NCBI GenBank assembly: GCA_046045965.1
Contig: JBJOKS010000002.1
Span: 128,001-192,000, forward strand
From: Cyanobacteriota bacterium
GTDB taxonomy: Bacteria; Cyanobacteriota; Cyanobacteriia; Cyanobacteriales; Nostocaceae
Direction: 5' to 3'
DNA: 64,000 nucleotides
Part shown: piece after piece, positions 34,928-38,115 of the stretch
How the letters are laid out: the number at the start of each line of letters is the position of its first letter
How positions within the stretch are numbered: position 1 is the first letter of the stretch
Program-made: the position numbers and the translations under genes
Notes under the pieces: model-generated
Databases searched by the model: none
What the model saw: the letters and a program-made list of their open reading frames with translations, nothing else
Told to the model about the DNA's origin: nothing

Positions 34928-35171
34928 ACTACAGCGATATTAAGAATTATTTAGATGTTAATCTACTGCATATCTCCCCAACTGGGGGGAGTATTTCTTT
35001 ATGAATGTTTTTAATTAGTAACCCTATTGCTAAAGGTGAAGTTAGAGAAAATTACTGCTATACTATTTTGATTAATAGTAAGTCAAAAAATCTGGTTTTG
35101 GCTACTATTTGTACATGCAAGTTCAAAGATAACTGAGAGCTTTTGATTTCCACAGAAACTTCATCTATACT

Positions 35172-35486
35172 ATGCCACCAATAGAACCTTTAGAATCTTC
35201 ATCACCTCAACCTATTAGTAATAATTGGTACTTATTAAATGTACGTTCTAAAAAACGGCAATCATTTTTAAAATTTTTGAACCTGACGATAGAACAAAAT
35301 AACCTGCAAGACTTCTTTTTGGATATAAAAGTTCCCCAAGATTCAGTATATGAAGATATTGTTTTACTGAATTTAACTAATTTTAAAACAGCATATACAT
35401 ATTTACAAAAAGTTGAATTTTTCCAGAATATAGAACGCAAACCCTTACAGTCAGCACAAGTTAATCGAATGTTGGGTATTAGTTAA
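35172..35486 (+). CDS. Stand-alone NusG N-terminal (NGN)-like protein
   Basis: WYLLNV.S, ...D.F.DIKVP, V...VLL, PL..AQV.RML follow the NGN pattern; no KOW domain. Confidence 0.55.
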   Translation: MPPIEPLESSSPQPISNNWYLLNVRSKKRQSFLKFLNLTIEQNNLQDFFLDIKVPQDSVYEDIVLLNLTNFKTAYTYLQKVEFFQNIERKPLQSAQVNRMLGIS

Positions 35487-35828
35487 GCTTCCCTGGAAAC
35501 AGGATGAAAAAGCTGGCAATTGTTAGTTACTCAGTTATTAGTTGTCACTTGTCACCTGTCACCTATTTTCTCCGCTGGGCTAGATGGTACTTATACTTAA
35601 TTAAATGTATAAATAATTTTGGGTGATATCTGGGTTGGAATATGGCAATTGAGGAAAGTATCATAAAACATGAATTATGAAGTTAGTTAGATTTGAAAAA
35701 ATCCATAAGCTTCACAATTCAGGTTTTATTAGCTCTCAGACTGAAGTCAAGATAAAATAGCTGCTTTGAGCTTTGAGCTATGGTAGCTTAACTCAAAACT
35801 CAAAACGGGAGCCAAATCAGCAGAGCAT

Positions 35829-36506
35829 TTAAGCCATTTGATTTTCAATCGCCCACCGTGCTAACTCAGTACGGTTATGGAGATTGGTTTTACCCAACAT
35901 ATTGGAAACATGGCTTTCAACGGTACGCTGACTGACGTTTAATTCTTCAGCGATTTCCCGGTTAGCTAAACCCCTGGCCACAAACTGAACTACTTTCAGT
36001 TCGGTTGGGGTCAACTGAACATCAAAGGGAACTTGGATACGGGAACCGTTTTCCCCTCCCTTAGTTTGATGTTCTTTCCAACGGATAGTTTGCTTAAGTG
36101 AGGATTCTACTTGTGCTACGAGTTCTTCTGGTTCAAAGGGCTTAACCATGTATACATCAGCACCTTTATTCAGACCTTTAACTCGGTCTGCACTTTGCCC
36201 CTTAGCTGAGAGGAAGAGAACGGGTATCCAGCTGGTGCGTTCATTTTGCCGCACTTGTTCGACAAAAGTGTACCCGTCCATTTCTGGCATCATCACGTCA
36301 CAGATGATCATGTCTGGAACATCATGTTCTAAAATATCCAGAGCTTCTCGTCCATTTTCCGCCGTGATGACTTCGTATCCCCGGAATTCTAAGTAATCCT
36401 TCACCAGCAAGATGAGGTTAGGGTCATCATCAATCAATAGAAGTCGTTTGTGATCTTTCATGCTGGACTCTTTCATAGCAGTGGCACTTGTCGCGCTTAA
36501 ATCCAT
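35829..36506 (-). CDS. NarL/LuxR-family response regulator
   Basis: LLIDDD, CDVMMP and KPF receiver motifs; LTPTE...HVSNML HTH. Confidence 0.95.
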   Translation of the reverse strand: MDLSATSATAMKESSMKDHKRLLLIDDDPNLILLVKDYLEFRGYEVITAENGREALDILEHDVPDMIICDVMMPEMDGYTFVEQVRQNERTSWIPVLFLSAKGQSADRVKGLNKGADVYMVKPFEPEELVAQVESSLKQTIRWKEHQTKGGENGSRIQVPFDVQLTPTELKVVQFVARGLANREIAEELNVSQRTVESHVSNMLGKTNLHNRTELARWAIENQMA

Positions 36507-36554
36507 CCAAGGCTTGAATAGTTATCCTCTATGGTGGATTATGTGAGATGTTGT

Positions 36555-36755
36555 GCAAAACAAAACTTACACAAATTGTTCATCATAGAGGCATATTTGG
36601 AATACACCCTAGAACATTTTGTTGTTTGCTTCCTGCTTCCACCAAGCCCGTCACCGGGTTCTTGTCCACAGGCGTAAATTCCGCGCTGGCCGCACGTACT
36701 GTTTTTTCCACTTAACTTGCCTTTGTGGCTTGTTGTTGTGAAAGTTGTGGTAACT
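36555..36755 (-). mobile_element. Orphan tnpB 3'-end / omegaRNA-like element (IS200/IS605- or IS607-derived)
   Basis: GGAATTTACGCCTGTGGA-hairpin-GAAGCAGGAAG signature. One frame reads VRAASAEFTPVDKNPVTGLVEAGSK, like a TnpB tail. No tnpA or tnpB in the window. Confidence 0.7.
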
Positions 36756-36983
36756 CTTAACATACTACTAGTAACTTTATAGCAAAAGTCTAGTAAGGAT
36801 ACGGAGAGCAATAGTATTTATAATGCGCTATTATATATTCCTTTGAAAGCAGCGGGCTAAAAAACCTGATTAAATCATAATCTGTCTGGTTGACAAGTTC
36901 AGTATTTAGCTGAAGATGACCCTAACTGACAACTCACCCGCACTTTCATTTGTTGACTGTTGCTCTACTATATCCTTTGGATG

Positions 36984-37458
36984 TTAAGCCTCTGTTAGAG
37001 ATTCACAAGAAACCAAGGCAGTTTCTGGCAAAGGATGGGTTAAAAGGGCTGATGCTTCAACCACCATGATGCCAATTAAGTGTTCTGGGATGATCCGCTC
37101 AATGACTTCCGGTTTGGAGTGCCTATACCAGACCCCATCTGGGTAAACTACCATTATCTGCCTAGAACAACAAATACGCAAGCAGTTGGTTTTGGCTCAG
37201 AGGATGCAAATCGGATAACTTTTATGCAACTGGTCAAGATATTGCCCCTTGAGTGATATTTTCCAGCATTCCCAGGATTCCAGTCTAGGTTATTTTGACT
37301 CCAAAGCAGTATCTGTCTGGTCATAACAAACAAAAACCAGTTTGGTGAAAATTTGCCAGTCCTGGAGGGTCTACACACTCACTTAGGGCTTTAAGTTCCT
37401 CAGCTTTGGTAGTTTTGGGGATTGGCTGGCTGTTTTGACTCACTGTATTGTTACTCAT
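36984..37458 (-). pseudogene. Degraded thioredoxin-like [2Fe-2S] ferredoxin
   Basis: The 3' part retains NCLRICC...IMVVYPDGVWY...IERII.EHL; the 5' part has stops and frameshifts. Confidence 0.75.
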
Positions 37459-37640
37459 CATTAAGCGGCTCCCTGATTACAGTTCTATAACAATTTCTCA
37501 GCTTTGGAAATAAAGTTGTCCATATAAAAATATTCACTACCTACGCAACAGAACCAGATAACTACAGTAATTAGGCATTTATACTCTGGGATTGGTAATT
37601 GGTAATTGGTAATTGGTGATTGGGAAAATAAAATTGATTA

Positions 37641-37696
37641 CCCAGTAAAGAGTCCCCAGTAAAGAGTCCCCAGTAAAGAGTCCCCAGTAAAGAGTC
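37641..37696. repeat. 4 x 14-bp tandem repeat CCCAGTAAAGAGTC
   Basis: Four exact copies, read directly. Confidence 0.95.
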
Positions 37697-37700
37697 CCTA

Positions 37701-37716
37701 GTTCGGGAACCCGTAC
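37701..37716 (+). promoter_or_regulatory. K-box of the groESL promoter
   Basis: GTTCGG-GAAC-CCGTAC matches GTTCGG-NNAN-CCNNAC. Confidence 0.85.
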
Positions 37717-37755
37717 AGAACAACTTGTTGCCATTAGTCATGACTTTTCGGTAGA

Positions 37756-37782
37756 TTAGCACTCAGGAATTGAGAGTGCTAA
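37756..37782 (+). promoter_or_regulatory. CIRCE element (HrcA operator)
   Basis: Perfect TTAGCACTC-N9-GAGTGCTAA. Confidence 0.98.
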
Positions 37783-37803
37783 CAAGCGAGAAAAATTAAA
37801 ATT

Positions 37804-38115
37804 ATGGCAGCTGTATCTCTAAGCGTATCTACAGTTAAACCTTTGGGCGATCGCGTTTTCGTAAAAGTGACCGCCGCTGAAGAAAAGACCGCAGGTGGTC
37901 TATATTTGCCCGACACTGCTAAGGAAAAACCCCAAGTAGGCGAAGTTGTAGCCCTTGGACCTGGGAAGCGGAATGATGACGGTAGCCGTCAAGAATTGGA
38001 AGTGAACGTTGGCGATAAAGTGCTGTACTCCAAGTACGCTGGCACAGACGTTAAGCTCGGCACTGAAGAATATGTACTGCTTTCTGAGAAAGACATTCTA
38101 GCAGTCGTTAGCTAA
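37804..38115 (+). CDS. groES: Co-chaperonin GroES
   Basis: [22 protein letters not shown]. Confidence 0.99.

Follow-up and report, generated by a model that had tools for sequence, protein, structure and literature searches.

The window analysed here, a stretch of 64,000 nucleotides from a member of the Nostocaceae, carries on its minus strand a gene for a response regulator, and the leader of this gene contains an insert homologous to a TnpB omegaRNA scaffold (Table 1). The right end of the insert stops at 36553, 46 nt upstream of the regulator ATG at 36506, close to the distance of about 50 nt given in the original prediction. Upstream of the leader, a promoter block at 36780-36850 (minus strand) with a TATAAT/ATTATA palindrome is highly conserved across the family and is likely the operator of this near-invariant regulator; the TATAAT box itself is, from its sequence, a likely host promoter/operator, and a sigma-70 consensus scan found no site, this box included. 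Between the regulator and groES, positions 36984-37378 (minus strand) hold a broken gene, presumably ferredoxin-like, that is also broken in most of the relatives viewed, and two kinds of short tandem repeats lie upstream of groES at 37590-37700. The gene names used below (tig, srx, ndhF, pdhA, gmk, rimP, rpsO, leuS, groES, groEL and tnsB) are those that we presume from sequence. We take the locus tags all3660 and sll1708 to be candidates for the studied counterpart of the regulator gene, and a literature search for such a counterpart gave nothing usable.

Table 1. Features of the regulator leader and of the insert within it; positions are those of the window.
Feature	Position	Strand	Basis or remark
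NarL-type response regulator, receiver and HTH domains, 225 aa	35829..36506	-	92-100% identity across the family loci compared
Would-be guide of 20 nt, part of the normal host leader	36533..36552	-	present in empty-site alleles
Entire insert: scaffold of an IS607-type omegaRNA with the right end, 148 nt, without left end	36553..36700	-	alignment with empty-site alleles; covariance model, 95.3 bits
Long 3' hairpin: A/C-rich 5' arm, hypervariable interior, 3' arm including the former right end	36553..36629	-	
42-codon frame, remnant of the C-terminal tail of TnpB, without conservation as an ORF	36583..36711	-	ORF list, alignment
P2 helix (CCUGU/GCAGG) enclosing SL2 (36643-36664)	36629..36672	-	
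Nexus hairpin; loop GCCA, against GCAA in tnpB-linked relatives; mismatched 5' half of the pseudoknot	36682..36696	-	
Host leader just 5' of the insertion point, ending in the AC core	36701..36721	-	conserved in non-carriers
CACAA-rich stretch: host leader, derived state common to carriers and genus g77	36723..36749	-	alignment
TATAAT box, palindromic and conserved, upstream of the leader	36819..36835	-	alignments; 13/82 columns vary in nine carriers

Family-wide BLAST found the same sequence as the 3' end of intact tnpB genes (for example P0001, 420 aa), and by BLAST and alignment the insert matches the tnpB-linked copies L064, L068, L071 and L081. A covariance model of 25 tnpB-linked scaffolds ranked it as the top of five matches in the genome (95.3 bits, E 1.3e-14), and the 42-codon frame, which had been likened to a TnpB tail, does exist and matches residues 389-403 in the tail of intact TnpB at 73%. 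The homology to an omegaRNA scaffold is thus, at the sequence level, unambiguous, and the tnpB 3' end recognized in the original prediction is confirmed; all of the strings that it quoted were found on the minus strand, among them the hairpin CAAG-CCCG-GTGA-CGGG-CTTG at 36664-36643. Neither tnpA nor tnpB accompanies the insert, again as predicted, and none of the 11 PF07282 matches in the genome lies on this contig. An Rfam scan of 35500-38000 returned nothing relevant, RAGATH-18 included, with two chance-level matches elsewhere, and the folding energy of the 221-nt region is modest (z -1.85). A role of the 42-codon frame as an upstream ORF or leader peptide was rejected because neither start nor frame is conserved: across the nine genomes that carry the insert the frame is shifted after the TnpB-like part in four, the GTG start is in frame in six and the stops differ.

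Alignment with empty-site alleles redrew the limits of the element, which had been placed at 36555-36755 and in fact occupies 36553-36700. The insertion is clean at an AC dinucleotide that stands at both junctions, and 52 of 61 non-carrier leaders have AC just before this site (AGAC in 10, GGAC in 16; seven unresolved). The CACAA repeats, proposed as a transposon end, fall outside the insert, are collinear with the empty alleles and are separated from it by 21 nt of host sequence that is kept in non-carriers. Their candidacy as a left end was rejected since the true left ends of the subfamily, which do hold similar CACAAA motifs further in, begin with a different sequence, one that this locus lacks. 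In the parent subfamily, seven of eight readable left junctions show AGAC and then the common left end; in the alignment with empty alleles the insert has no such left end and the first bases of its scaffold directly abut host DNA. The structure is therefore that of a left-end deletion and not, as had been suggested, of an internally deleted element with both ends. In decayed copies elsewhere (L047, L052) an internal AGAC stands just before the scaffold, so that a deletion from junction to AGAC would explain what is seen. We propose that an element inserted at the AC core in the regulator leader and that a deletion, mediated by a serine recombinase or by microhomology, may then have run from the original junction to the internal AC just before the scaffold, removing the left end and tnpB. 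A serine-recombinase motif lies upstream of tnpB in the sister subfamilies L205, L209 and L223 (58-63% to the parent TnpB) and in others, and in none of nine copies of the exact subfamily, three of which have little upstream context; the parent TnpB, P0001, also falls below the curated cut-off of both the IS607 and the IS200/605 models. The label 'IS607-type' consequently derives from the relatives and from the core dinucleotide.

A presence/absence check in relatives showed that 9 of 389 family genomes hold the insert, recognized by its GCCA loop, as one copy each and always at the regulator gene; the carriers represent three genera (four in g1, two in g92 and three in g23), and the leader comparison covered these nine leaders and 61 orthologues without the insert, 70 in all. 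A version-specific pattern matched 10 of the 389 genomes, the tenth being G168 with two parent-type copies that match with one or two mismatches. The insert is also present in four named public records, two Nostocales MAGs, Anabaena sp. UHCC 0451 and Sphaerospermopsis kisseleviana NIES-73, which were excluded from counts and trees against double counting; an exact-pattern scan of metagenome contigs gave no hits and PLSDB plasmids held no match to the insert. Genus g77 has the derived upstream leader of the carriers, has no insert and also misses some host sequence beyond, a state that is possibly a secondary loss. The carriers form a clade in the regulator-gene tree (94/95), and this clade was rejected by trees with groES/groEL (AU p 0.002-0.004); carrier monophyly and the nesting of g77 were compatible with the regulator gene (AU p 0.21-0.28) and rejected by groEL-containing sets. 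Four-fold distances gave no sign of recent transfer. In age the insert roughly matches the divergence of the carrier genera, and the gene trees conflict on its history.

Related remnants were observed elsewhere in the family. A second, decayed remnant of the same subfamily (L256, 45 bits) lies at G000:C18:73771-73906, before a gene that we assume to be NYN-like; it was unmatched at the orthologous site in five of five relatives searched, and the same AC junction occurs in G137. Other remnants lie repeatedly in sense orientation 16-135 nt before housekeeping genes: tig (L047, L048, L052, L323), srx (L046, L050), pdhA (L051), gmk (L053), ndhF (L269, L292, L266), rpsO (L054) and leuS (L068, with an intact tnpB), and tig of G000 is preceded by a mini-element with both left and right ends. 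In L292 and L266, in the ndhF leaders of G147 and G025, the pseudoknot shows a compensatory change (ACAA/UUGU for GCAA/UUGC) and there is no adjacent tnpB, making these two a candidate for a standalone omegaRNA that is still functional. L139 and L141 (tig, genus g16) and L140 (rimP, G062) are tandem omegaRNA 3' halves, the second unit resembling the 3' hairpin of the insert; they fit the insertion of one element at an AC inside the scaffold of another and resemble nascent omegaRNA arrays. At L135 (G168:C36:38000-42500) the tnpB is intact, a small ORF in reverse orientation stands between the left end and this gene, and the right end runs into repeats that we take to be like a Tn7/CAST end with a tnsB-like start. 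G094 and G147, with 55 and 38 omegaRNA model matches against 21 and 3 tnpB matches, hold many protein-free copies of a sister subfamily.

The nexus and P2 helices of the insert are kept in all nine carriers, with one nexus pair broken in G025, and the closing stem UGUUC/GAACA of the long 3' hairpin is conserved. The nexus and P2/SL helices covary in the tnpB-linked reference set. Among the inserts there is only one clear compensatory event, in SL2, where one base pair is G-C in g1 and g92 and U-A in g23; most pairs are invariant and so little informative. Changes in the core are concentrated in loops, with one paired double change, and loop and joint primary sequence is conserved, not pairing alone. 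The interior of the long hairpin beat shuffles in folding at p<0.05 in only three of the nine.

A pseudoknot between the nexus loop and the 3' end is paired in 98% of cells across the 25 tnpB-linked scaffolds; three of its four pairs change on both sides, and the covariation score was reached by none of 500 shuffles. A different pseudoknot, of an AAUUUAC stretch with a 3' GUAAGUU stretch, was dropped because it was the nexus-loop pairing that showed covariation. All 25 tnpB-linked scaffolds have a Watson-Crick third pair, and all nine inserts have C-U there; the remaining three pairs are kept in all nine inserts, in which a weakened pseudoknot may persist. The consensus fold predicts the terminal UUGC within the long hairpin, paired with the linker. 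An explanation for this is that the change of the loop from GCAA to GCCA, together with a U-richer 3' end, may have shifted the terminal UUGC from the pseudoknot to the hairpin with the linker GCAAAC, and an RNA with UUGC so displaced would make a poor guide.

These observations bear on the possibility that the insert is a standalone, trans-acting omegaRNA which directs a TnpB towards the empty allele of the leader or another target, an option of the original prediction that we now regard as most improbable. Its covariance score is the highest in the genome, one C-U pair might be tolerated, the tree discordance could reflect old homing, and trans-acting standalone omegaRNAs are described in the accessible parts of two reports (PMC10691335; 10.1101/2023.03.14.532601). 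Set against this, and besides the uniform C-U mismatch, the last two scaffold bases differ in five of the nine inserts, and an IS607 TnpB requires the pseudoknot according to the available portions of studies in which whole motifs, not one pair, were mutated (10.1101/2023.11.20.567912; PMC11061315). Without a left end there would be no excision, so no empty site would arise. The guide would, as predicted, be host leader sequence, and it is variable at 15 of 46 columns of the guide region; a search with the 16-20 nt or so past the right end found no AGAC-flanked match of at least 8 nt in G000 (92% complete), the best having four mismatches in 16, typical of shuffled guides, where the presumed target motif AGAC is that of the seven of eight readable left junctions. 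No cognate-subfamily TnpB was found in any of the nine carriers, several of whose genomes are drafts, and the best full-length proteins stand at 41-45% to the parent type; across the family, 18 of 121 genomes hold such TnpBs at E<=1e-100, with sister subfamilies also passing this cut-off. The insert derives from an omegaRNA and resembles one in its working, but as it fails the pseudoknot, left-end and target tests it is not filed as a functional omegaRNA or PATE, and it is probably not a guide.

The conservation of the insert suggests that it has been kept by the host. Between genera 1-11% of sites differ in its 89-nt core (G025 aside), and at four-fold sites of the regulator, groES, groEL and tig the carrier genera are 0.19-0.48 apart. 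Core against regulator four-fold sites, the differences number 1/88 against 21/88 for G000-G137 and 8/87 against 36/88 for G000-G108 (Fisher p ~1e-6 in both, values that are overstated since the nine carriers are related and not independent), and 10/87 against 37/84 for G000-G147; each g92 genome shows one core difference to G000 and 19-21 at about 88 regulator four-fold sites. Variable columns in eight carriers amount to 14/89 in the core, 49/82 at four-fold sites and 12/82 in the promoter region, and with G025 as the ninth to 24/89, 58/82 and 13/82. Over the 290 nt upstream, 51 of 271 positions differ between G000 and G108, and the hairpin interior (36582-36611) varies at 29 of 30 columns. 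An interior this variable is at odds with a block transfer in recent times. Conversion from other copies is at odds with the GCCA loop, which no other matched locus shows.

Remnants of this element type before other genes in the same genomes provide a second yardstick, and they decay faster than the regulator insert in five of seven pairings. Their differences are 11/66, 15/89 and 10/66 for tig, 19/86 for srx and 18/89 for ndhF; thus G001 and G003 differ at 15/89 in the tig remnant and 19/86 in the srx remnant against 5/87 in the regulator insert, and G108 and G147 at 18/89 in the ndhF remnant against 4/87. Both exceptional pairings involve G025, whose copy is decaying (41.8 bits by the covariance model) and differs at 13/87 from each sister, against 11/89 and 10/89 in ndhF. 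One explanation for the data is a neutral scar that has decayed slowly by chance or through low local mutation and is kept because deletions in a leader are risky. It would accommodate the decay in G025, the absence from g77, the abundance of orphan remnants of its own and sister subfamilies (5-55 covariance-model matches per genome) and the want of any functional effect predicted from the terminator and promoter scan and from folding. We nevertheless consider it decidedly unlikely, given the slower decay than in most sister remnants and, between genera, a divergence of the core 4- to 20-fold below that of synonymous sites, next to a saturated interior. The insert is not a simple scar, and this conservation above both synonymous sites and most sister remnants supports the other option of the original prediction, a domesticated 5'-UTR element.

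How the insert might act was approached through transcript and folding data. In metatranscriptome run X1 a single contig identical to the window bridges 36850-36468 at a depth of 77, against 2-4 at 35034-35501; in X2 a contig spans 36468-36684, in X4 a contig shows 11 differences and in X6 the cover is partial, both X4 and X6 being thin over the region. Such contigs carry neither strand nor ends and possibly include DNA, and they support transcription weakly and a separate small RNA not at all; with respect to attenuation, the contig depths of X1 and X2 disagree and cannot rank the parts. No intrinsic terminator or internal sigma-70 promoter was found by consensus scan. Removal of the insert in silico hardly altered the accessibility of the start codon, and sequestration of the start codon was not supported by folding. 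IS ends are known to supply promoters, and the retained part could in principle act as DNA, as a promoter or transcription-factor site derived from the transposon end; the scarcity of compensatory changes would agree with sequence being conserved as such. We find this very unlikely, as the conserved 89 nt follow the RNA helices with changes mainly in loops, the host TATAAT box upstream is intact and no promoter-like site emerged from the scan.

We therefore favour, with modest confidence, the view that the insert is an exapted cis-acting leader RNA which most likely tunes the stability or processing of the regulator mRNA. It would be transcribed from the upstream host promoter as a folded part of the mRNA leader and would set the stability or processing of the message, probably together with a protein reading the conserved core, and not by hiding the start codon. 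Against this reading stand the decaying copy in one carrier, G025, and the related genus g77, whose lack of the insert makes the element look dispensable.

Another possibility is that the insert is a decoy or sensor for TnpB: the guide-disabled core may bind the TnpB of other IS607 elements and either titrate it into a non-cutting complex or, on cleavage, couple the output of the regulator to transposon activity. RNA anti-CRISPRs offer a comparison for an RNA decoy of this kind. The conserved loop and joint sequence is as expected of a protein-binding RNA, and three of four pseudoknot pairs persist in all nine inserts. Seven of the nine carriers encode full-length IS607-like TnpBs that belong to sister subfamilies (41-45% to the parent type); in six of the seven all three catalytic motifs were read, and the TnpBs readable in full keep the D-E-D motifs (11 rows, three of them mis-trimmed); G025, with the decaying copy, has TnpB fragments only. 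According to the accessible text of PMC10278001, TnpB carries out the 5'-end processing of its own omegaRNA. This explanation is unlikely in our view, as no carrier has a TnpB of the cognate subfamily and no single TnpB subfamily is common to all carriers; the explanation would call for loading across subfamilies. Nor is there a clean link between the state of the insert and the presence of an IS607 TnpB: in its draft genome G001 combines an intact insert with IS607-type tnpB as fragments only, and G128 has a full-length tnpB and no insert.

The insert resembles the omegaRNA/reRNA of IS607-family elements, as far as these are described in the accessible parts of reports on CboIStron (10.1101/2023.11.20.567912) and the RAGATH-18 RNA of ISFba1 (PMC11061315), in that nexus, further stem-loops and right end follow in the same order, and it shares with such elements a core dinucleotide common to both junctions. 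It differs from them in lacking tnpB, tnpA and left end, in its fixed pseudoknot mismatch and in its occurrence as a single copy at one host locus in three genera. Standalone omegaRNAs and PATE-like elements (PMC10691335; 10.1101/2023.03.14.532601) are likewise scaffolds without a nuclease gene, but on the available accounts they are mobile, PATEs having both ends, with a compatible effector in the same genome, whereas the insert is one-ended, fixed in copy and without a cognate effector among those found. As with TldR guide RNAs (PMC10705468), a transposon omegaRNA would have been kept for host gene regulation; in TldR systems, from what is accessible of that report, a nuclease-dead protein is encoded beside the guide and the DNA targets lie elsewhere, whereas the insert is RNA alone, in cis, with a guide part that is not conserved and no adjacent TnpB gene. 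The IS200 tnpA 5' UTR sRNA (PMC5435999) and Sulfolobus RNA-257 (PMC3674436) are, in the open parts of their descriptions, also transposon sequences reused as regulatory RNA, but these are trans-acting small RNAs and the insert is an omegaRNA scaffold within a host leader. In the accessible literature, which leaves subscription journals largely outside, neither this locus nor the retention of a lone omegaRNA scaffold in a host leader was reported, and the main text of a screen of conserved cyanobacterial RNA structures (PMC12873609) contains neither 'transpos' nor 'response regulator', although its supplements may list the locus.

The domestications of TnpB described so far in the sources accessible (Cas12, TldR and sigma-linked forms) have retained the protein, and the present locus points to the RNA half of a TnpB system kept alone and in cis. 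It offers a dated before-and-after series, with empty alleles, carriers, a decaying copy and loss, and allows a direct test of omegaRNA scaffolds as raw material for bacterial leader RNAs, or as TnpB decoys. A by-product, for one IS607-type TnpB subfamily of cyanobacteria, is its pseudoknot register and its likely target motif. If the decoy or sensor reading were true, the host would have turned the guide RNA of a transposon against that transposon or into its sensor. Perhaps, as similar remnants lie before housekeeping genes in the family, this route from transposon to leader RNA may recur.
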